Source of the DNA: an uncultured Planctomycetota bacterium
GTDB lineage: Bacteria > Planctomycetota > Planctomycetia > Isosphaerales > Isosphaeraceae
Direction of reading: 5' to 3'
NCBI GenBank assembly: GCA_963823665.1
Contig: CAWGMQ010000004.1
Location: 3,011,606-3,075,605, forward strand
Length of the DNA stretch: 64,000 bases
A program made the position numbers and the translations under genes. The notes under the pieces are model-generated. The model did no database searches. It worked only from the letters and a program-made list of their open reading frames with translations, and was not told the DNA's origin. Below are positions 15,789 through 58,200 of the stretch, one piece after another (position 1 is the stretch's first letter; every line of letters starts with the position of its first letter).

Positions 15789-16236
15789 CCTCGACCAAGC
15801 AAGAGAGTTACTGCTGGGTCTCCTCCGCGGACAGGCCCGGGAATATGAAAGGGGGGGACTGGCCAAATCAATGCATCCATGCTAGAATAACGGTCAGAAA
15901 CTTGCTCAACGAATAGGATGGTTTTGGCAACGGAGGTGATTGGCCCACAAGGCCGAGGAACGAGCTTCTTGACTCGAGTGCTCTGACTGTTGCCCGGTGG
16001 GAGGTGAACAAATCAGCCTGGTCAAACGCCTGGGTGGTTTGGGCTCGATGAGGGTTTCGGTTTCGATTAATTTGACGCGTGCGAGGCATGGATTGAATCG
16101 GAATGTTCTAGAATAATGGCGGTCGGGTGTCCCAATTGGCGGTGATCGTCAATACGTTATTGGGGCTGCAGTTCAGGATTCGCCTTGAGCGCGAATTGAT
16201 GAGAGGAGAGGGGGCGTGGGCAGCGCACGGGAGAAG

Positions 16237-17091
16237 ATGAGTCGGAAGCAAAGGCGCTACAGCCCGACCGTCGAGCTGCTCGAGGCCGTGCGCCTACTCT
16301 CGAGCGCCACCGAAGCGCACCCGCTCGCGACTCTTGCGGCCGAGCACGAGTTGCTGGCCGATCTGCCCGGTGCCGTATCGCATCTGGAAGATGATGCGAC
16401 ACCGTTCTCGACGGCGGCGTGGGATGAGGCGCTCGTACAGACCGAGCTTTCCGACATCCTGGGTTCAGTCGGTTCATCGAGCTCCAGTTCCACGGCGGCT
16501 ACGTCCGCCGCGAAGTCTTCGCCCACGGTCTTGTCGCAGCCGGCCGCGACCGTCGACTTCAAAGACCTGACGTCCGGGCTAAGCCAGTTGAGCAAGTATC
16601 TGAGTCGAGCTTGGTATCGAGCAGGCATTTCCCCGCAGCTCCACGACGACAGCACCCAGGCGGTGTATGTCACGCTGCTTCAGCAGCTCGGCCGGGGCAG
16701 CTTCGACTCGCTGATTGCAGACGTCGGCCACTCGGGAATCAAGGATGTTTTCACGCGGGAGACCTCCGAGGGTCTGGCCTTCTTCCGAGCCGTTGACATG
16801 GTGAAGAAGCGGGCTCAGCGCGAGCGGGTGCACCATTCGCTCGACGCACTCGATGTCGCTGGCCCGGTTGATTCGCACGGCATGAGTACATCGCGGCGGC
16901 AAGCGCTGCTCGAGGCGATCGAGAATACGCTCAGCCCTCGCGAAGCCGCCTTGATCCGGGCTACATTGATGGGCAAAACCCCCGCCGAGATCGCAGATCA
17001 GTGGGGAGTCTCGCCCAAGACGGTGAGCAACGAAAAGACCCGCGTCCTGCAGAAACTGCGTCTTGCACTCGCCGACCACGAGATGAACTGA
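16237..17091 (+). CDS. ECF-like sigma70 factor with N-terminal extension
   Basis: Region-2-like HDDSTQAVYVTLL; region-4 HTH LSPRE...GKTPAEIADQWGVSPKTVSNEKTR. Confidence 0.7.
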   Translation: MSRKQRRYSPTVELLEAVRLLSSATEAHPLATLAAEHELLADLPGAVSHLEDDATPFSTAAWDEALVQTELSDILGSVGSSSSSSTAATSAAKSSPTVLSQPAATVDFKDLTSGLSQLSKYLSRAWYRAGISPQLHDDSTQAVYVTLLQQLGRGSFDSLIADVGHSGIKDVFTRETSEGLAFFRAVDMVKKRAQRERVHHSLDALDVAGPVDSHGMSTSRRQALLEAIENTLSPREAALIRATLMGKTPAEIADQWGVSPKTVSNEKTRVLQKLRLALADHEMN

Positions 17092-23052: not shown

Positions 23053-23991
23053 TCATACTCGACCCTCGTCCGATGGGTCGTCAGGCTTTTGGCCGCCGCC
23101 GGTGCCTGGTTCGGGAGCGTCTCGGTCCGCGTCCGAGTTTTCCCGGTTGTTGCTCTCCTCGCCAGCGCCGCCGTTCTCGTCCGAACCGTTCTCGGATCCG
23201 AGCCGATCGAGTTCTTCTGATGCGTCATGCGTCTCCTGGATCGTATGTTTGGGCCGAATCACGAAGCTCAGGATCATGATCAAGACCATCACGGACCAGA
23301 ACACAACCTCAGGGATGTGAAAGGGACGAACGTTTTCTTTGCCGAAGAACTGGGTGGCGGCATCGGAAAGACCACTGATCGTGAGCTTCAGCCCGATCCA
23401 CGCGACGAGGCAATAGGCTCCTTCAGCCAGCCCCGGGAAGCGATCGAGCAAGAGCACGAAATATCGCACCACGAATCGCATCGTGATGATTCCAAGGATC
23501 CCCCCGGTCAGAACGATGAAGTACTTCCCTCGATCTTCGAACCGCTCGGGAAAGTCATCGGCCATGCCGACGGCGGCAACGATCGAGTCGATCGAGAAGG
23601 CAATGTCGGTCAGAGTAACGGCTGCTACAGTTCCCCAGAACCCGCGAAACCAGGCTCGCAGCTTCGATTGCGTTGGCGCGGTCGCACCTTCTGCCGAATG
23701 GCGCCGCGACCAGAAGTGGGAGATTGCCAGGTACAGAAGATAACCACCCCCGATCACCTTGAATTGCCACAGCTTGAGCAGGATCGCCGATAGAAAAACG
23801 GCAACCACACGGAAACCGATCGCGCCCCAGATTCCCCATTGCAAAACCCGGCGACGATCATGGCGCTCAAGGTGCCGGACCATGAGCGCCAGCACCAAAG
23901 CGTTGTCAGCGCTCAAAAGACCTTCCAGGAACACCAGCACAGCGATGTACCAGGCGACTAGGGGAACGTCTCCGGCCAAGGGGCCCATCAT
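23053..23991 (-). CDS. TerC-family membrane protein
   Basis: LEGLLSADNALV, DIAFSIDSI, GIITMRF. Confidence 0.9.
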   Translation of the reverse strand: MMGPLAGDVPLVAWYIAVLVFLEGLLSADNALVLALMVRHLERHDRRRVLQWGIWGAIGFRVVAVFLSAILLKLWQFKVIGGGYLLYLAISHFWSRRHSAEGATAPTQSKLRAWFRGFWGTVAAVTLTDIAFSIDSIVAAVGMADDFPERFEDRGKYFIVLTGGILGIITMRFVVRYFVLLLDRFPGLAEGAYCLVAWIGLKLTISGLSDAATQFFGKENVRPFHIPEVVFWSVMVLIMILSFVIRPKHTIQETHDASEELDRLGSENGSDENGGAGEESNNRENSDADRDAPEPGTGGGQKPDDPSDEGRV

Positions 23992-45311: not shown

Positions 45312-48300
45312 ATGAACCGTCTACCGCGAAGCGGGTTGATTGATACGGGTTCTTCACGTCGTCGTCGCTCGGCGGGGCGCAGGCGGCTCTCCAACATGTG
45401 GCCCTCGATCGAGGGCCTGGAGAACCGCACGTTGTTGTCGACGATCAGTTGGGACAGCGTCGACTATCCCACCGGCGGAACCTGGGACAATGTGTCGCAC
45501 TGGCAGGGGGGTGTTCTCCCGGGCACCGCCGACACCGCCGTGATCGACCTGACGAGCGGAACCGTCACCACCGGCGCAAGCGATTCCGTTCTCAGTCTGA
45601 TGACCAACTCGTCGACGACCGTGAGCGTGGCGAACGGCTCGCTGACCCTCGGCGCGGCCACGTCCTCGATCGAAGGGTCTATCGCCGTGAGCAGCACCGG
45701 TACCCTCGCGCTCAGCGGCACGACCTTGATTGGCAGCGGGTCCGTGACCGACTCCGGCCATCTCACCACCAGCAACAGCAGCACGGCTTTGAGCAGCATC
45801 AACATGGCCAGCGGCAGTACGCTGAACATTGGCAACTTCACCGTGCAGCCAGGTGCGACCCTGAGCGTGAGTGCCAGTGCCAGCGTGACGATGGGGCCGC
45901 CGTCGGCCGCCAACACGTACACGACGCTGACCGACAACGGCACGGTGAGCTTCGCCTCGGGCGACACGGTGGGCCTGTACTGCTCGTACAACGGCAACTA
46001 CGGCTACGTCTACGGGGCGCAGATCGTCGTCGGCAACGGCGGGTTGCTCCAGGCCACCGGCACCGCCTTCAACTCCCCCGGCTCGGACGGCATCGTGCTA
46101 CACCAACATCACCGTCAACGGCGGCGGGCATCTCCAGGCCAGCTCCAGCACCTTCGCCGTCGGCTATGTCGATCTCGTCGACGGCGTCGTGTGCAACGCG
46201 GGCGACTTGACGGGCGACGGGTTCGACTCGCCGCTCTACATCCCCGCCATCGACGTGCAGTACCTGGCCAACAACCTGCGGTTCCAGTCGATCGACGTCC
46301 AGGCGGACACGATCGTCAGCGGCGAGACGCTGGCGTTGAACTCCATCGGGACGCAGACCACGACCAACCTCCGCTACGTGTTCCCCGGCGGTCTGACGGT
46401 GAATCAGGGGGGGAGCGTGACCGTCGCCGCCAGCGTCCCGGTCGTGCTCTCGGGCGGTCTGACGGTGAACCAGGGGGGCAGCGTGTCGTTCGGCGCCAGC
46501 GACGCGGTGACGATGGGGCCGCCGTCGGCCGCCAACACGTACACGACGCTGACCGACAACGGCACGGTGAGCTTCGCCTCGGGCGACACGGTGGGCCTGT
46601 ACTGCTCGTACAACGGCAACTACGGCTACGTCTACGGGGCGCAGATCGTCGTCGGCAACGGCGGGTTGCTCCAGGCCACCGGCACCGCCTTCAACTCCCC
46701 CGGCTCGGACGGCATCGTCTACACCTACATCACCGTCAACGGCGGCGGGCACCTCCAGGCCAGCTCCAGCACCTTCGCCGTCGGCTATGTCGATCTCGTC
46801 GACGGCGTCGTGTACAACGCGGGCGACCTGACGGGCGACGGGTTCGACTCGCCGCTCTACATCCCCGCCATCGACGTGCAGTACCTGGCCAACAACCTGC
46901 GGTTCCAGGCGATCAACGTCCAGGCGGACACGATCGTCAGCGGCGAGACGCTGGCGTTGAACTCCATCGGGACGCAGACCACGACCAACCTCCGCTACGT
47001 GTTCCCCGGCGGTCTGACGGTGAATCAGGGGGGGAGCGTGACCGTCGCCGCCAGCGTCCCGGTCGTGCTCTCGGGCGGTCTGACGGTGAACCAGGGGGGC
47101 AGCGTGTCGTTCGGCGCCAGCGACGCGGTGACGATGGGGCCGCCGTCGGCCGCCAACACGTACACGACGCTGACCGACAACGGCACGGTGAGCTTCGCCT
47201 CGGGCGACACGGTGGGCCTGTACTGCTCGTACAACGGCAACTACGGCTACGTCTACGGGGCGCAGATCGTCGTCGGCAACGGCGGGTTGCTCCAGGCCAC
47301 CGGCACCGCCTTCAACTCCCCCGGCTCGGACGGCATCGTCTACACCTACATCACCGTCAACGGCGGCGGGCACCTCCAGGCCAGCTCCAGCACCTTCGCC
47401 GTCGGCTATGTCGATCTCGTCGACGGCGTCGTGTACAACGCGGGCGACTTGACGGGCGACGGGTTCGACTCGCCGCTCTACATCCCCGCCATCGACGTGC
47501 AGTACCTGGCCAACAACCTGCGGTTCCAGTCGATCAACGTCCAGGCGGACACGATCGTCAGCGGCGAGACGCTGGCGTTGAACTCCATCGGGACGCAGAC
47601 CACGACCAACCTCCGCTACGTGTTCCCCGGCGGTCTGACGGTGAATCAGGGGGGGAGCGTGACCGTCGCCGCCAGCGTCCCGGTCGTGCTCTCGGGCGGT
47701 CTGACGGTGAACCAGGGGGGCAGCGTGTCGTTCGGCGCCAGCGACGCGGTGACGATGGGGCCGCCGTCGGCCGCCAACACGTACACGACGCTGACCGACA
47801 ACGGCACGGTGAGCTTCGCCTCGGGCGACACGATGGGCCTGTACTGCTCGTACAACGGCAACTACGGCTACGTCTACGGGGCGCAGATCGTCGTCGGCAA
47901 CGGCGGGTTGCTCCAGGCCACCGGCACCGCCTTCAACTCCCCCGGCTCGGACGGCATCGGCTACACCTACATCACCGTCAACGGCGGCGGGCACCTCCAG
48001 GCCAGCTCCAGCACCTTCGCCGTCGGCTATGTCGATCTCGTCGACGGCGTCGTGTACAACGCGGGCGACCTGACGGGCGACGGGTTCGACTCGCCGCTCT
48101 ACATCCCCGCCATCGACGTGCAGTACCTGGCCAACAACCTGCGGTTCCAGTCGATCAACGTCCAGGCGGACACGATCGTCAGCGGCGAGACGCTGGCGTT
48201 GAACTCCATCGGGACGCAGACCACGACCAACCTCCGCTACGTGTTCCCCGGCGGTCTGACGGTGAATCAGGGGGGGAGCGTGACCGTCGCCACCAGCGTC

Positions 48301-51300
48301 CCGGTCGTGCTCTCGGGCGGTCTGACGGTGAACCAGGGGGGCAGCGTGTCGTTCGGCGCCAGCGACGCGGTGACGATGGGGCCGCCGTCGGCCGCCAACA
48401 CGTACACGACGCTGACCGACAACGGCACGGTGAGCTTCGCCTCGGGCGACACGATGGGCCTGTACTGCTCGTACAACGGCAACTACGGCTACGTCTACGG
48501 GGCGCAGATCGTCGTCGGCAACGGCGGGTTGCTCCAGGCCACCGGCACCGCCTTCAAGTCCCCCGGCTCGGCACGGCGTCAGCTACACCAACATCGCCGT
48601 CAACTCCGGCGGCCAGTTCATCGCCTCTCAGGGGTCGCTCAGCGTTGGGAATGTGTATCTGTATTCCGGCTCGACCGACACTTTGAACTCCGACGTTTTC
48701 TACTCGACGCTCGCGATCAACAGTGGGGCGTTCATCAGTATCATCGGGAACGACTTTAGCAACGCGTCCGTGGTCGCCTCGGGCACTTCCACCGCCACGA
48801 TCAACCTCCTCAACAACTACTGGGGCACGACGAACCCCACGACTATCGCCGCCAAGATCACGGATCACCACACGAACTCCAGTCTTCCCACCGTCCTCTA
48901 CACCCCATTTCTGACTGCACCACCGCCAGACCTGGGCGCGATCCAGGGTGTGGTCTTCAACGACGTCAACGGCAACGGAGTGCAAGACAGCGGCGAGTCC
49001 GGGCGTGGCCGGCGTGGTCGTCTACGTCGATGCCAACGATAACGGCGTCCTCGACGCCGGCGAGCTCAGCACGGTGACGCAGGCCGACAATCCGATCACT
49101 CCTGTGAACGAGGCGGGCGATTTCAGTTTCCCCGGCCTGGCGCCCGGCACTTACGTCGTGCGCGAGCAGGCCCCAGTGGGCACGATCGAGACGACTCCCT
49201 CGGCGTCTTCGGTCATGAACACCATCGACTTCGACGGCACCGGAGCCGAGTCGGGCATCACCGGTGCCGGCGTCAGCAGCTTCACGTACCACGGCGCCAG
49301 CTTCTCCGGCGGCACCATCTTCGCCGCCAGCCAGTCGGCCCTGCTCGCGTCGGGCGCCCTGGCCTATAACGCCACTAGCGGTAGTGCCCAGGTCAATTTC
49401 AGCCTGCCCATCAGCTCCGTCACCTTCTTCTACGTCTCCGGTGACGGCTTCGCGGCCGGCACCGCCACGGCCTTCGGCCCCGACGGCACCAACCTCGGCT
49501 CGGTGAACAGCAACCCCGCCACCACCAACGACGCACCGGGCAACTTCGTGACCCTGAGCTTCGCGGAACCCATCGCGCAGATCACATTCAGCGGCGGTGT
49601 CGTCGATAACTTCAGCTTCACGACCGTGGCGAACGATCAGGCCGAGTTCGTGCACGTTACCGCAAGCCAGACCGTCAGTGGCATCAACTTCGGCAACCAG
49701 AGCACCGTCGCCTCGACCGATCTCGTGGCCACCAGTGTGACGACGACGACCACCGGCTTCACCGCGACGTTCAGTGCGCCGCTGAACCCGAACGTCCTCA
49801 ATCTCTACGACACCAGTACCATGGGGCCAGCCGACGCCACCCTCGTCGGCCAGAGCACCGGCCCGGTCACGGGGTCGCTGGTCTTGAGCGCCAACAACAC
49901 GACCATCACGTTCATCAACACCGCCGGCCTCCTCGCGCCCGACACGTACACGATCACGCTGAACAGCGGGGCGAACGCCTTCGTGAGCACGACCGGCGCC
50001 CTGCTCGACGGCAACGGCGACGGCATCCCGGGCGACAACCTCACGTCTACCTTCACGGTCAATCCCCTGCCCAGCAACGCGGTCGTGGTCAGCATCCCGA
50101 ATTTCACCCGGGGCTACGGCCAGCCGGTGAACGTGCCCGCCTCGAGCACGGCGGGCCTGCCGATCACGCTCAGCACCGGCGAGGACGTCAGCGGGGTCGA
50201 CCTCACCCTCCTCTACAATCCCGCGCTCTTGACGCTGAGCGGTTTCACGACATCGATCCCCGGCGCATCGGCGCTCTTCAACGTGACCACTCCCGGCACG
50301 GCGATCATCACCATCAGCAGCCTGGGCCAGTTCAGCTCATCGGCCGGATCGATCACCCTGGGCGACCTGACGGCCTCGGTCCCCGACAACGCACCGTACG
50401 GATCCAAGGAGATCCTCCAGATCACCAAGCTGTCGGTCTTCGATGATTCGGCGACTCCTCAGCCACTGCCCTCGGTGGCGCAGGACGCCATTCACATCGC
50501 CGCCTACTTCGGCGACACGAATGGCGATCAATCGTACGACACGCCGGACGTCACGCTCGAGCAGCGTTATATCGGCTTGGTCAACAACGGATTCCCGGCC
50601 TTCCCGCTGGCCGACCCCGCTTTGATCGGGGACATTACCGGAAACGGATCGATCCAGGCCAACGACACGACGAGCATTCAGCGCGTGATCGGACAGGTGA
50701 ACGTCCCGAACGTCCCTGCCCTGCCAACGGGCCTGCCTGCTGCCCCGAGCGGTGGCCCCGACCCGACGATCTTCATCCCCAACGTGAGCGGCAACCCGGG
50801 AGATACCGTCACGGTCCCCGTTGAAATGACGGTCACGGACGGCACCGGCATCACCGTCAGCGGATTTCAAGTCGCGATCGCCTACGACCCGACCAAGTTG
50901 ACCGTGAATTCCGCCTCGCTTGGGGCGATGTTCCCAGGGGCTCTCGGGTTCGCCCCCGTGTTGACGTTCCCTGCACCTGGCCAGTTGATTTTCAACGCCG
51001 CGTCCGCAACGGGCACGGGCACGATCCCGACGGGCACGACGACGGCGCTCTTCACACTCAGCTTCACCGTGGCCGCCGATGCCGCGGCGGGGCCCACGGT
51101 CATCAACCTACTGCAAAGCATCTCATCGACGACCACGGCGATCTTCGCCAATGACGCTGAACTCTCGCGGCTCAGTCTCTCTCCGGCCCCCTCGAACGCC
51201 TCTTACGATTCGATTGACGGAATCTTTGAGATAGCAACTCCCGCACCGAGTGGTGATGCGAGCGCCACCGGGGTCTCGGGCCGCTCGGGCTCGCAGTCCA

Positions 51301-52261: not shown

Positions 52262-55200
52262 GTGAACTCGACGACGTTCCGCCGACAACGTGTGATGAAG
52301 CGCAGACGAGACCTCGCCTTGCAGCTCGTCGTCGAGGAAATGGAAGACCGGATCATGCTGGCGAGTCTCACGGCAAGCAGTGGTGTCGTATCGATCTCCG
52401 GCGCCCAGGGCGCCATCGGAACCGCTAACGTGCAAAGCACGCTCTCAGCGGCAGCTATTCCGGACCCGACCATTTTCATCCCTGTCGTGCACGGTAACGA
52501 CGGGGACACCGTCTCCGTTCCGATCGAATTGACAGTTACCGCCGCCAGCGGAATCACTGTCAGCGGGTTCCAGGTCGCGATCGCGTACGATTCTAGCGAA
52601 TTCTCGGTGAATAGCGTCGCTCAACTGGGCCCCATGTTTTCCGCGGCCCTCGGTTTCTCGGGATTGCTGAGTTTTCCGGCCCCCGGTGAGCTGATATACA
52701 ACGCGTCATCGGGAACGGGCACCGGCAACATTCCGTTCAACACGACCGCGCCGCTTTTCACCCTCAGTTTCACGGTAGCAAGCGACGCCCCGACCGGCCC
52801 TTCCGTCATCAATTTGCTGCAAAATATCTCCACGACCGCCACGGCGATCTTCGATAACAACCTTGACGAGCTGATCCTCACGCCTGCACCGACCAATGCG
52901 CCGACCGATTCGGTCGACGGGCTCTTCCAGGTCGGCCCTGCGGCGCTGGTTTCGATCGCGCTGTCCCCGGCAAGCCCCTCGGTGGCCGAGGGCCTGACGC
53001 AACAGTTTACCGCCACGGGCACCTACACAGATCGGTCCTCAGCGGTCGTGACCAATCAAGTGACCTGGGCATCGGGAACGACATCGGTCGCCACAATCTC
53101 CAACACCTCAGGCAGTCAGGGCCTGGCCTCCACATTGGCCACCGGCACGACTGCCATCACTGCGGCCCTTAGCGGGATCACGAGTCCAAGCGACACCCTG
53201 ACCGTGACCGCGCCTCTATTGACCTCGATCGCCGTTTCGCCGCTGAGTCCGTCGGTTGCCAAGGGCCTCGCGGAACAGTTCACGGCTACGGGAACTTACA
53301 CCAACAACACAACCGCCGACCTGACCACCCAGGTGACCTGGGCGTCGAGTACGACGTCAGTCGCGACCATTTCCAACACCACCGGCAGCCAGGGCCTGGC
53401 CTCCACATTGGCCACCGGCACGACCGCGATCACCGCGGCCCTTAGTGGGATCACCAGCCCAAGCGATACTCTGACAGTGACCGCGGCAGCCCTGGTGTCG
53501 ATCGCAGTGGCCCCGTTGAATCCGTCGGTGGCCAAGGGACTCACGGAGCAGTTCACGGCGACGGGGACCTACACCGATGGCTCAAACGCGAACCTGACCA
53601 CCCAGGTCGACTGGGTGTCGGGTACAACGTCGGTCGCGACCATTTCCAACACCACCGGCAGTCAGGGTCTGGCGTCCACATTGGCCACCGGCACGACCGC
53701 GATCACTGCGGCCCTTAGCGGGATCACGAGTCCAAGCGATACCCTGACCGTGACCGCGCCGCCCCCAACCGACTTCTGGACCGGGGCCTCGGCCGCGCAC
53801 GGCGGCAACGATGACTGGAGCAACGCCGGAAACTGGAGCCTCGGCGCGCCGCCAAGCGCGACGGAAACGGCCGATTTCACGGCATCGGAATCGCAGTATT
53901 CGACATCGATCGTCGACATCCCGTTCTCAATCGCCAACCTGACCATCGACAGCACTTGGGGGGGCACCGTCGACGCGAACGCGTCACTGACCATCTCCGG
54001 TAACCTGACCCTCGCGAGCGGCACGTTAAGCGCCAGTGGCTCTGTCTCGGTGGCCGGTAGCAACAGCCAGTACACGGGAGGAACTCTGAGTGGGAACGTT
54101 TCCAATTCTGGCACACTGACCATCGCCGGCTCGGGAACCAGGACGTTTAATGGCGCGCTGACCAACTCCGGCACGATCCAGGTGAGCGCCGGGTCGGGGA
54201 ACGCAAACACCATCACGGGGACGGTGTACAACGAGGGATTGATCGCCGTCGCCAGCAACGCGTACCTGTACATTTCCGGGAACTATTACGCTGCCGGCGG
54301 GTCGATCACCGGGCCGGGCTACCTGTATAACACCGCGCTATATGTCACCGCGAGCCCCACCGCGGCGACCACGATTCTGCTGGAAGGAACCGGCAACACG
54401 CTGGAAACCAATAACCTGGCCAACACGACGCTCTGGGTGCAGGGCAACGGCCACGTCGGCAACGCTGTCCTGAACGTCGCCGGTGGCACTGTCAACGACG
54501 GGACCATCCTGCTGGAGTCGCAGGACAACACCTATGCCGACACCCTGGCCATCGGCAGCGGCACCCTCACCAACGCGGCAGACGGGACAATCCAGGTCGC
54601 GCAGGGCTCGGGCGGTGGGCGCGGGATCAGCGGGACGGTGGTCAACCAGGGCCAGATCGACGTCGGCTCCAACACCGGCTTGGGCGTCTCCGGAACGCTG
54701 GAAAACCAGGGGCAGGTCGCCGTCTCCTCGTACACGACCATCAGCGGGACCTACGAGTACGACGGCGGCTCGATCACCGGGCCGGGCTACCTCTACAACT
54801 GCACCCTCGACTTCACCGTCAACCCGACCGCCCCGACGACCTTACTGCTCGAGGGGTCGGGCGACACGCTCGGTGGTGCCGACATCCCGGCCGACGCCAC
54901 GCTCTGGGTGCAGGGCAATGGATACCTCGGCCAGGACGCCGTCCTGAACCTCGCCGGTGACACGGTCAACGACGGGACCATCTTGCTGGAGTCGCAGAAC
55001 AACACCTATGGCGACACCCTGGCTCTGGCCGGCACCTTCACCAACGCGGCCGACGGCACGATCCAGGTCACGCAGGGCTCGGGCGGTGGGCGCGGGATCA
55101 GCGGGACGGTGGTCAACCAGGGCCAGATCGAGGTCGGCCCCAACACCGGCGTGGGCGTCTCCGGAACGCTGGAAAACCAGGGGCAGGTCACCGTCTCCTC

Positions 55201-58200
55201 GTACACGACCATCAGCGGGATTTACGAGTACGACGGCGGCTCGATCACCGGGCCGGGCTACCTCTACAACTGCACCCTCGACTTCACCGTCAACCCGACC
55301 GCCCCGACGACCTTACTGCTCGAGGGGTCGGGCGACACGCTCGGCGGCGCCGACATCCCGGCCGACGCCACGCTCTGGGTGCAGGGCAATGGATACCTCG
55401 GCCAGGACGCCGTCCTGAACCTCGCCGGTGACACGGTCAACGACGGGACCATCTTGCTGGAGTCGCAGAACAACACCTATGGCGACACCCTGGCCACCGG
55501 CAGCGGCACGCTCACCAACGCGGCTGACGGCACGATCCAGGTCACGCAGGGCTCGGGCGGTGGGCGCGGGATCAGTGGGACGGTGGTCAACCAGGGCCAG
55601 ATCGACGTCGGCCCCAACACCGGCGTGGGCGTCTCCGGAACGCTGGAAAACCAGGGGCAGGTCACCGTCTCCTCGTACACGACCATCAGCGGGACCTACG
55701 AGTACGACGGTGGCTCGATCACGGGGCCGGGCTACCTCTACAACTGCACCCTCGACTTCACCGTCAACCCGACCGCCCCGACGACCTTACTGCTCGAGGG
55801 GTCGGGCGACACGCTCGGTGGTGCCGACATCCCGGCCGACGCCACGCTCTGGGTGCAGGGCAATGGATACCTCGGCCAGAACGCCGTCCTGAACCTCGCC
55901 GGTGGCACGGTCAACGACGGGACCATCTTGCTGGAGTCGCAGAACAACACCTATGGCGACACCCTGGCTCTGGCCGGCACCTTCACCAACGCGGCCGACG
56001 GCACGATCCAGGTCACGCAGGGCTCGGGCGGTGGGCGCGGGATCAGCGGGACGGTGGTCAACCAGGGCCAGATCGACGTCGGCCCCAACACCGGCGTGGG
56101 CGTCTCCGGAACGCTGGAAAACCAGGGGCAGGTCGCCGTCTCCTCGTACACGACCATCAGCGGGACCTACGAGTACGACGGCGGCTCGATCACCGGGCCG
56201 GGCTACCTCTACAACTGCACCCTCGACTTCACCGTCAACCCGACCGCCCCGACGACCTTACTGCTCGAGGGGTCGGGCGATACGCTCGGCGGCGCCGACA
56301 TCCCGGCCGACGCCACGCTCTGGGTGCAGGGCAATGGATACCTCGGCCAGGACGCCGTCCTGAACCTCGCCGGTGGCACGGTCAACGACGGGACCATCTT
56401 GCTGGAGTCGCAGAACAACACCTATGGCGACACCCTGGCTCTGGCCGGCACCTTCACCAACGCGGCCGACGGCACGATCCAGGTCACGCAGGGCTCGGGC
56501 GGTGGGCGCGGGATCAGCGGGACGGTGGTCAACCAGGGCCAGATCGAGGTCGGCCCCAACACCGGCGTGGGCGTCTCCGGAACGCTGGAAAACCAGGGGC
56601 AGGTCACCGTCTCCTCGTACACGACCATCAGCGGGATTTACGAGTACGACGGCGGCTCGATCACCGGGCCGGGCTACCTCTACAACTGCACCCTCGACTT
56701 CACCGTCAACCCGACCGCCCCGACGACCTTACTGCTCGAGGGGTCGGGCGACACGCTCGGCGGCGCCGACATCCCGGCCGACGCCACGCTCTGGGTGCAG
56801 GGCAATGGATACCTCGGCCAGGACGCCGTCCTGAACCTCGCCGGTGACACGGTCAACGACGGGACCATCTTGCTGGAGTCGCAGAACAACACCTATGGCG
56901 ACACCCTGGCCACCGGCAGCGGCACGCTCACCAACGCGGCTGACGGCACGATCCAGGTCACGCAGGGCTCGGGCGGTGGGCGCGGGATCAGTGGGACGGT
57001 GGTCAACCAGGGCCAGATCGACGTCGGCCCCAACACCGGCGTGGGCGTCTCCGGAACGCTGGAAAACCAGGGGCAGGTCACCGTCTCCTCGTACACGACC
57101 ATCAGCGGGACCTACGAGTACGACGGTGGCTCGATCACGGGGCCGGGCTACCTCTACAACTGCACCCTCGACTTCACCGTCAACCCGACCGCCCCGACGA
57201 CCTTACTGCTCGAGGGGTCGGGCGACACGCTCGGTGGTGCCGACATCCCGGCCGACGCCACGCTCTGGGTGCAGGGCAATGGATACCTCGGCCAGGACGC
57301 CGTCCTGAACCTCGCCGCTGGCACGGTCAACGACGGGACCATCCTGCTGGAGTCGCAGAACAACACCTATGCCGACACCCTAGCTCTGGCCGGCACCTTC
57401 ACCAATGATGCCGACGGCGCGATCCAGGTTGCGGCTGGTTCGGGAGGAGCGCGCTCGATCACCGGCAGCGTCATCAACGCCGGCACGATCGATTTCGACA
57501 CCGCTACGACTTTCGGGGCCACGGGGGCCAGCTTGGTGAACACTGGCCTCATGAGCATCGCGGGCGCCACCGTCACTGTGGTGGGAAACACATTGACCAA
57601 TGGTGTTGGCGGATTGGTCAGCGGGTACGGAACCTTCACTACGTCCGGCGTCACCGTCAACGACACCAGCGGTACGGTGCAGGCGTCAGGCGGGACGCTC
57701 AACGTCACAAATTCCGGCCTCGTCTCCAGTGGCACGCTCGGCGTCGGCACGTGGCTTGTGGGACCTGCCAGCACGCTGACCATCAGCGGCGTCTCCTCGA
57801 TCTCCACTCTCTCGGCGAATGTCGCGCTCCAGGGCTCCGGAGCGACCTTCACCGGCCTCTCCAGCTTATCGAAGATCTCTTCCGGCGGCGAGCTCGAGCT
57901 CGAGAACGATGCCTTGACCACCGCCGGCAATCTCGACAATGCGGGGACCATCGACCTGGCGCCCGGTACGCTGAATGTTGCGGGCACCTACACGCAGGAG
58001 AGCACCGGCGCATTTGACGTCGGGGTCGGCGGCACCACGCCCGGGAGTCTCATTTGGCCAACTGAACGTGAGCCAGAGTGCGTCGCTCAACGGCGGCCTC
58101 AGCGTCAACCTGATCAATAACTTTACCCCGCAGCAGGGACAGAACTACCAGATTCTCACGTTCGCCTCGGAAACCGGTAATTTCTCCGCCGAGTTCGGCC

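Follow-up and report, generated by a model that had tools for sequence, protein, structure and literature searches.

Gene coordinates and domain architecture

The window, by which we mean the whole stretch of 64,000 nucleotides of planctomycete DNA that was analysed, contains on its forward strand a gene whose predicted product is an ECF-like sigma-70 factor. We refer to this protein as paralogue A, and to a sister family with the same core as paralogue B. The features of the gene are as follows.

16039..16074, + strand: conserved two-part upstream element TTGnnCTCSA-N-TTYGATTAAGTT with fixed spacing (79-locus comparison)
16201..16215, + strand: purine-rich, ribosome-binding-site-like stretch before GTG 16216, in an arrangement conserved across loci
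16216..17091, + strand: ECF-like sigma-70 factor gene, paralogue A (open reading frame, TIGR02937, start conservation)
16243..16305, + strand: variant planctomycete export motif, an Arg-rich stretch followed by YxPxVExLEx[LV]RLLS, with a hydrophobic residue at the canonical Arg position
16408..16464, + strand: conserved amphipathic helix around WDxAL (alignment, predicted helix, hydrophobic moment)
16465..16554, + strand: variable Ser/Ala/Thr-rich linker, predicted to be disordered (alignment, AlphaFold model)
16555..16845, + strand: sigma region 2; contains the DxxQ motif and, compared with paralogue B, ~12 inserted residues
16882..17088, + strand: sigma region 4 helix-turn-helix (GerE, 37.2 bits; Sigma70_r4_2, 24.3 bits, below its cut-off)

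The preliminary description read the protein from ATG 16237 to position 17091, and this frame translates as quoted there. To assign the start, we compared 79 loci (78 orthologues and the window) and called in each the nearest start with a ribosome-binding-site-like stretch. A GTG or TTG lies 11–15 codons before the motif tyrosine in 74 of the 79, and the starts called in this way are almost always GTG or TTG. The column of the window's ATG is Lys or Asn in most homologues. Since the start position is kept and the ATG column is not conserved, GTG 16216 is the probable start; it adds seven residues in frame and gives a protein of 291 rather than 284 residues. The export-like motif lies downstream of both starts and belongs to the protein in either case.

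The whole protein matches TIGR02937 with 46.3 bits, above the curated cut-off of 42.9. In Pfam, the C-terminal helix-turn-helix alone is matched, and Sigma70_r2 gives no match in paralogue A. The region 2 motif D-x-[TS]-Q is present in 200/201 paralogue A sequences, and the recognition helix of region 4 is nearly invariant in the alignment. In the AlphaFold model, two helical domains are predicted with confidence and a short linker of low confidence connects them, which is the arrangement of sigma2 and sigma4 without sigma3; the N-terminal 100 residues are modelled with low confidence (pLDDT mostly <50, pTM 0.40). In Foldseek, the best matches are sigma factors, although they are weak (best E 2.2e-3, none at E <= 0.001), and a sequence search of the PDB returns LuxR-type helix-turn-helix proteins as the best matches. 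On this sequence evidence, paralogue A is an ECF-like sigma-70 factor, and binding to the polymerase is predicted from the kept DxxQ motif.

Between the motif and the core, the preliminary description placed an amphipathic segment and a Ser/Ala linker. In the paralogue A alignment, the Ser/Ala/Thr-rich linker varies, whereas conservation holds for the motif, for the helix around WDxAL and for the sigma core. Residues W62, D63, A65 and L66 of the helix are invariant in 55 aligned sequences; the helix is predicted with low confidence for residues 60–74, with a hydrophobic moment of 0.61.

Comparison of the N-terminus with the canonical LExRxLL motif

The motif with which the N-terminus was compared is present, as first described, in two giant proteins of the same window.

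45417..45440, + strand: canonical LExRxLL motif of the giant protein 45312–48686 (profile score 25.3 bits)
52340..52363, + strand: canonical motif of the Ig-repeat protein 52262–58120 (profile score 19.4 bits; Big_2 domains)

In the passages of PMC8567305 that treat it, the planctomycete extracellular motif PF07595 has the consensus RRLxxExLExRxLLA. The same passages date the proposal of LExRxLL as an export signal to 2004, note that the largest proteins of planctomycetes bear it, and say only that it is 'thought to represent' such a signal. Machinery for the LExRxLL route was not found in the literature searched. We scanned the first 170–520 residues of 32 canonical-type proteins of the same genome; 14 of the 32 have Pfam matches, mostly to Ig-like, fn3, beta-propeller, beta-helix and cyclophilin domains, and none of the matches is to a DNA-binding domain. 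The segment 45312–63999 of the window is a cluster of giant surface proteins (Ig-like, cohesin, dockerin), in which the frames 45312/48948 and 52262/57975/58972 resemble fragments of longer genes that frameshifts or stops have interrupted.

The N-terminal motif of paralogue A, RRxYRPxVExLEA[LV]RLLS, was first noticed in a single protein and proves to be conserved across the family. The homologue search found 880 proteins, and the alignment is made up of the 120 matches listed and the query. The motif region is reached by 118 of these 121 sequences, in all of which E13, L15 and R19 are invariant. The motif codons vary synonymously across 78 loci, which indicates that selection acts on the motif as protein. 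Paralogue A resembles the PF07595 motif in its Arg-rich N-terminal stretch, in ExLE and LL[SA], which lie in register with the canonical motif, and in its position at the N-terminus. It differs in that the Arg of L-E-x-R-x-L-L is replaced by a hydrophobic residue and an Arg sits one place later, and in that the passenger is a sigma core instead of surface domains. The shift of the Arg, which the preliminary description had noted, is fixed: the canonical position is occupied by Leu (68), Val (46), Met (3) or Ala (1) in the 118 sequences and by Arg in none. This count is the unbiased one, since the patterns used to extract motif sets preset a hydrophobic residue (paralogue A) or Arg (canonical) in that column; the Arg-position columns of those sets are therefore not evidence. 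The Y/R-P prefix is common to the paralogue A motif and several canonical motifs of the same genome.

Library models do not recognize the motif. PF07595 (cut-off 25.5 bits) gives no match in paralogue A with Pfam, and the Pfam and NCBIfam scans miss the motif there and likewise in the two giant proteins, which served as positive controls. The scan on which the preliminary description would have relied is thus negative but uninformative. In the genome of the window, PF07595 has at least 86 matches among the 150 of 512 candidates that were scored; paralogue A is absent from these 86, and just one of them is above the cut-off, so the model is insensitive here.

We therefore used 28 canonical motifs of the same genome to construct a profile; one row (L018) was dropped because of a mis-picked frame, and L030 is absent from the set. 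From 80 loci, 77 paralogue A motifs were obtained (three loci gave none), of which six are in a different frame from the sigma core, probably because of assembly frameshifts. The median score is 16.0 bits for the 77 motifs, and the window protein has 12.3 bits; for the canonical motifs themselves the leave-one-out median is 28.7 bits. In a six-frame background of 1,860,052 windows from the window and the other loci retrieved, only 13 others reach 16.0 bits, and 12 of these 13 are canonical motifs. At the N-termini of 597 gene-like ORFs, the best score that is neither canonical nor paralogue A is 8.0, against a paralogue A minimum of 9.7. Shuffling the first 60 residues reproduces the observed score in 15/20,000 cases for the window protein and in 0/10,000 for a typical orthologue. 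In the reciprocal search, a profile of the paralogue A motif against the same genome returns canonical-type motifs as its top three non-self matches and as 5/12 overall, with weak E-values.

These results bear on the reading that the resemblance is due to chance, that is, that an ordinary orphan regulator of the ECF-like or LuxR type happens to begin with an Arg-rich amphipathic stretch, which was picked post hoc. The motif has no Pfam or NCBIfam match, about six chance windows in 1.86 million reach the 12.3 bits of the window protein, and the PDB sequence matches are LuxR-type, all of which would suit an accidental likeness. Against it stand the orthologue median of 16–17 bits, the shuffles of the typical orthologue, the reciprocal matches, the sigma factors among the top structural matches, weak as these are, and the Sec-type signal in paralogue B. 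The profile background, the reciprocal search and the shuffles largely refute this reading, and we consider it very improbable. One such N-terminus picked post hoc from a whole genome could be chance; among sigma factors, and given paralogue B, this is unlikely. The claimed likeness to the export motif is thus borne out by profile, reciprocal search and shuffles, and the N-terminus of paralogue A is, as far as sequence comparison can tell, a conserved, altered relative of the planctomycete LExRxLL motif, with a resemblance beyond chance.

The altered form itself is not widespread. The canonical pattern occurs 143 times against 24 in controls in the genome of the window and 183 times against 74 in five relatives, whereas the variant pattern, paralogue A included, occurs 8 times against 5 in the control and 22 times against 28, respectively. 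At such background levels the variant appears to be private to paralogue A, and it seems not to serve as a signal in any other protein.

A paralogue with a predicted Sec-type signal

Paralogue B came to light as a second, weaker match of the paralogue A profile in most Isosphaeraceae genomes and in another family. It has the same core as paralogue A (HHalign probability 99.7%, E 3.6e-26). Four members score 50.9, 43.3, 37.1 and 35.8 bits with TIGR02937, two of the four above the cut-off, and the best structural match is the ECF factor SigL (E 4.0e-4). The polymerase- and DNA-contact motifs, DxxQ and the helix-turn-helix, are conserved in both paralogues. Where paralogue A has its extension, paralogue B has a run of basic residues followed by a short hydrophobic core and, immediately ahead of region 2, an AxA-type site. 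By our own heuristic, in which the AxA pattern is loose, 154 of 156 N-termini have a positive n-region, all 156 a short h-region and 153 an AxA-like site; 120 of the 156 come from close relatives. For the best 11-residue hydropathy the median is 2.41 in paralogue B and 1.14 in paralogue A, and the uncharged run of paralogue B has a median of 17 residues. From a search with 921 hits, the 150 best representatives at 50% identity were taken, of which 132 could be scored: 119 are signal-like, 11 have no signal and two are of the A type. The signal-less B-like proteins (P0272, P0274, P0278, P0285, P0292, P0306, P0311, P0323, P0375 and two others) are natural forms or truncated gene calls. A search for viral homologues of paralogue B gave 120 pattern matches, none of them confirmed, and no signal-less B-like form turned up in viral contigs. 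As predicted from sequence, then, one sigma family bears two unrelated export signals, LExRxLL-like in paralogue A and Sec-type in paralogue B, which makes the feature stronger than the preliminary description had it.

The two paralogues also differ at the other end. The C-terminus of paralogue B is small or non-polar in 60/63 representatives (crude background about 0.42) and in 35/37 loci, and that of paralogue A is Asn or Asp in 50/69 and lacks this non-polar tail. The title of a reference in PMC9382460 reports a preference of Tsp, a periplasmic protease, for non-polar C-termini. A TATAAT hexamer lies upstream of 17/36 paralogue B genes. Region 2 of paralogue B contains three conserved cysteines, a CxxC and a third Cys, of which the CxxC is lost in paralogue A; a redox or disulphide layer in paralogue B is possible.

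The copy of paralogue B in the genome of the window (G000:C11:926717-927199; L111:4161-4736, − strand) has a frameshift just past the hydrophobic stretch, from a sequencing error or a broken gene, and follows a phosphomannomutase-like/HAD frame. A supplementary table of PMC8567305 on Tuwongella has 51 'sigma factor' rows, two with a SignalP Sec/SPI call; one of the two is a 23.0-kDa sigma-70 protein that has no Pfam match in the table and was undetected by proteomics. This protein may be paralogue B, which its size fits.

The anatomy of paralogue B raises the reading that both proteins are true cargo and work outside the producing cytoplasm, in periplasmic storage, in a bud or another cell, or in a non-transcriptional role. 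Gemmataceae and Isosphaeraceae, in which the family is common, are budding bacteria, and a textbook signal peptide followed by three region 2 cysteines would suit a protein with a life outside. However, DxxQ and the helix-turn-helix are conserved in the way that contact with RNA polymerase and DNA would require, the non-polar tail of paralogue B suggests turnover over storage, and we know of no re-import route for an exported sigma factor. We regard this reading as improbable.

Distribution and phylogeny

Paralogue A is present in 114 of 121 Isosphaeraceae genomes; 119 match the profile, five of these via paralogue B alone. No orthologue-level match was found in 227 class-level and 300 phylum-level genomes outside Isosphaeraceae, and the named orthologues all belong to this family (Singulisphaera, Aquisphaera, Paludisphaera, Tautonia and Tundrisphaera). 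Paralogue B belongs to a family of Planctomycetia with a wider range: it occurs in 73/73 genomes of the window's own family, in 52/66 of a second family (f95) and in 2/2, 1/1, 2/73 and 2/7 genomes of four others, and it was not found in the remaining families sampled. Its named members are in Gemmata, Frigoriglobus, Urbifossiella and Paludisphaera. The wider range suggests that the Sec signal is the older of the two. In a quick, unrooted tree, from which the window protein was left out, paralogue A comes out as a single long-branched group (26 rows, SH-aLRT 100) among signal-bearing paralogue B proteins, with its placement unresolved, so the order of events is taken from the distribution. An atlas search gave strong matches to planctomycete sigma clusters only. 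In two soil RNA runs (share 0.05), contigs of relatives cover the coding region alone, motif included, which we do not read as transcription.

Upstream element and gene neighbourhood

The two halves of the upstream element at 16039–16074 are offset by 23 in all 47 good matches among the 79 loci, and the element is likely to be an alternative-sigma promoter or an operator. It does not lead to a regulon. In the genome of the window there is one exact match, as in the control, and 79 against 56 with one mismatch allowed. The element is absent before 33 motif-bearing genes, where the best scores average −10.8, compared with −8.6 for the opposite strand and a median of 38.6 for true sites, and before 13 paralogue B genes. 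We also tried the element as a regulon marker in five other genomes and rejected it, as the extra matches fell inside or before unrelated genes. Target genes of paralogue A were thus not obtained from these searches of its own genome, five others and the 33 motif-bearing genes. Further short sequences lie upstream of the gene: TAGAAT hexamers at 15870–15890 and 16100–16115 of the window, TGCATG in 39/79 loci and GTCCTAT in 17/79. These are possibly further promoters or an operator.

In the window, the neighbours of paralogue A are a gene for a PLP-dependent enzyme upstream and a lactonase gene downstream; the preliminary description was right that an anti-sigma gene is not adjacent. No neighbour is conserved in a majority of 80 loci, the commonest being a Gfo/Idh/MocA oxidoreductase (33), a PLP enzyme (22) and a convergent TerC gene (21). 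Anti-sigma and secretion genes do not occur among the annotated neighbour clusters of these loci, five clusters having no Pfam match. The TerC genes of the 21 loci lie on the opposite strand and usually directly downstream, and the window has a gene for a TerC-family membrane protein at 23053–23991 (− strand). TerC proteins have a role in the metal loading of secreted enzymes. Translations of the segment 8151–13258 include SufD-like, sulfurtransferase, SufE-like, Rieske ferredoxin and metal-sulfur cluster assembly genes. A canonical-motif protein is encoded near paralogue A in the orthologue loci L089, L092, L093 and L095 (downstream) and in L101 and L105 (upstream), and this is not general.

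Proposed control by export

A sigma factor with a conserved export signal is, at face value, a contradiction, and this family presents two cases of it on one core. The signal of paralogue B would send its sigma domains to where there is no DNA, yet the contact motifs are conserved; control by removal is the simplest reconciliation. In such a mechanism, paralogue B would be synthesized at all times, leave the cytoplasm by Sec and be broken down in the periplasm, and it would act when Sec export fails. Paralogue A would have arisen in Isosphaeraceae by swapping the Sec signal for the LExRxLL tag and would monitor this second route. We consider it an evenly balanced proposition that the tag hands the sigma factor to the LExRxLL export route and so prevents it from reaching RNA polymerase as long as the route is neither blocked nor saturated. 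The change from Arg to a hydrophobic residue could make paralogue A a poor or uncleavable substrate, docked or slowly exported and out-competed by true substrates; as none of the 118 homologues has the canonical Arg, we regard normal export and docking or slow export as equally likely.

The conserved motif, its canonical kinship, the surface domains of the canonical proteins, the signal-bearing paralogue B, the non-polar tail of paralogue B and the TATAAT before its genes all speak for control by export. The fixed loss of the Arg, the private variant and the Asn/Asp end of paralogue A, as well as the 11 signal-less B-like representatives, speak against it, as do the lack of a secretion gene as a conserved neighbour in the 80 loci and the absence of the upstream element before the motif-bearing and paralogue B genes.

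The loss of the Arg and the second conserved helix, WDxAL, which has no counterpart in paralogue B, are also what would be expected if paralogue A had been fused to the 5' end of a surface-protein gene and the relic had turned into a pro-sequence. The tag and the helix would then form an inhibitory or protease-sensitive extension in the cytoplasm, comparable to BldN and SigC, whose N-terminal extensions are said in the relevant part of PMC7826278 to be processed or to inhibit. The AlphaFold confidence in the extension is low and speaks neither for nor against its packing on the core. However, the paralogue A family has kept the Arg-rich stretch and almost every other canonical position, and the sister family independently has an export signal at the same end, which makes a relic rather unlikely, if less so than true cargo.

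Control by export, extended to the family, reads as follows: sigma factors of Planctomycetia may be export substrates that gauge secretion capacity, paralogue B on Sec and paralogue A, with a weakened decoy signal, on the LExRxLL route. We put this forward tentatively, with somewhat less than even confidence. If it is true, the regulon of paralogue A would name the machinery that exports the giant surface proteins of planctomycetes, and an export-regulated paralogue A would make the old question of LExRxLL export testable.

Comparison with known systems

In the literature searched, no planctomycete sigma factor is described as carrying an export signal; an earlier mention within the definition of ECF87–89 is possible. 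Wiegand et al. 2020 reportedly defined the profiles of these groups. In the part of PMC8103513 that concerns them, ECF87–89 are planctomycete groups with N-terminal extensions of unknown mechanism; compared by description alone, paralogue A or B may belong to them. We conclude from the sequences that the export-signal feature of the two paralogues is real, conserved and apparently undescribed, with the mechanism as a proposal. Demonstrated export would make them a new kind of bacterial regulator, and regulation by export, if it occurs, would add a control mode of ECF factors to the five that the 2021 review lists in the same part (PMC8103513).

BldN/ECF121, SigC and SigR resemble paralogue A in having a sigma2–sigma4 core, an N-terminal extension and no neighbouring anti-sigma gene, but no export signal is described in those extensions in the relevant part of PMC7826278. 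In Escherichia coli, sigma-32 is routed to the protein-targeting machinery (SRP) as part of its control, as stated in part of PMC3866087, and is thus alike as a sigma factor routed to such machinery.

The preliminary description proposed that the sigma factor couples transcription to secretion by FlgM-like logic in one protein. The coupling gains from the motif kinship and from the Sec-type signal of paralogue B, which strengthens the link to export; FlgM is the less close analogue. The export of FlgM, which controls sigma-28, reports the state of the secretion machine to transcription. FlgM is a separate anti-sigma factor whose export turns genes on; here the sigma factor itself bears the signal, and its export would turn genes off. 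No candidate for a separate exported anti-sigma factor occurs among the conserved neighbour clusters annotated from the 80 loci, though one may be encoded elsewhere in the genome. The structures 1rp3 and 9wsf, which we take to be FlgM/sigma-28, are listed in the structure search with paralogue B.

The closest functional analogue of paralogues A and B would be ATFS-1 of Caenorhabditis elegans, rather than FlgM, because the regulator itself is the transport substrate. According to the part of PMC5835775 that describes it, working transport leads to import and degradation of ATFS-1, and a failure of transport lets it activate genes. Its targeting signal is reported there to be weaker than those of its targets. 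ATFS-1 is a eukaryotic bZIP protein that responds to mitochondrial import and has no homology to the sigma factors, whose mechanism we infer from their sequences; the likeness lies in a regulator that carries its own targeting signal.
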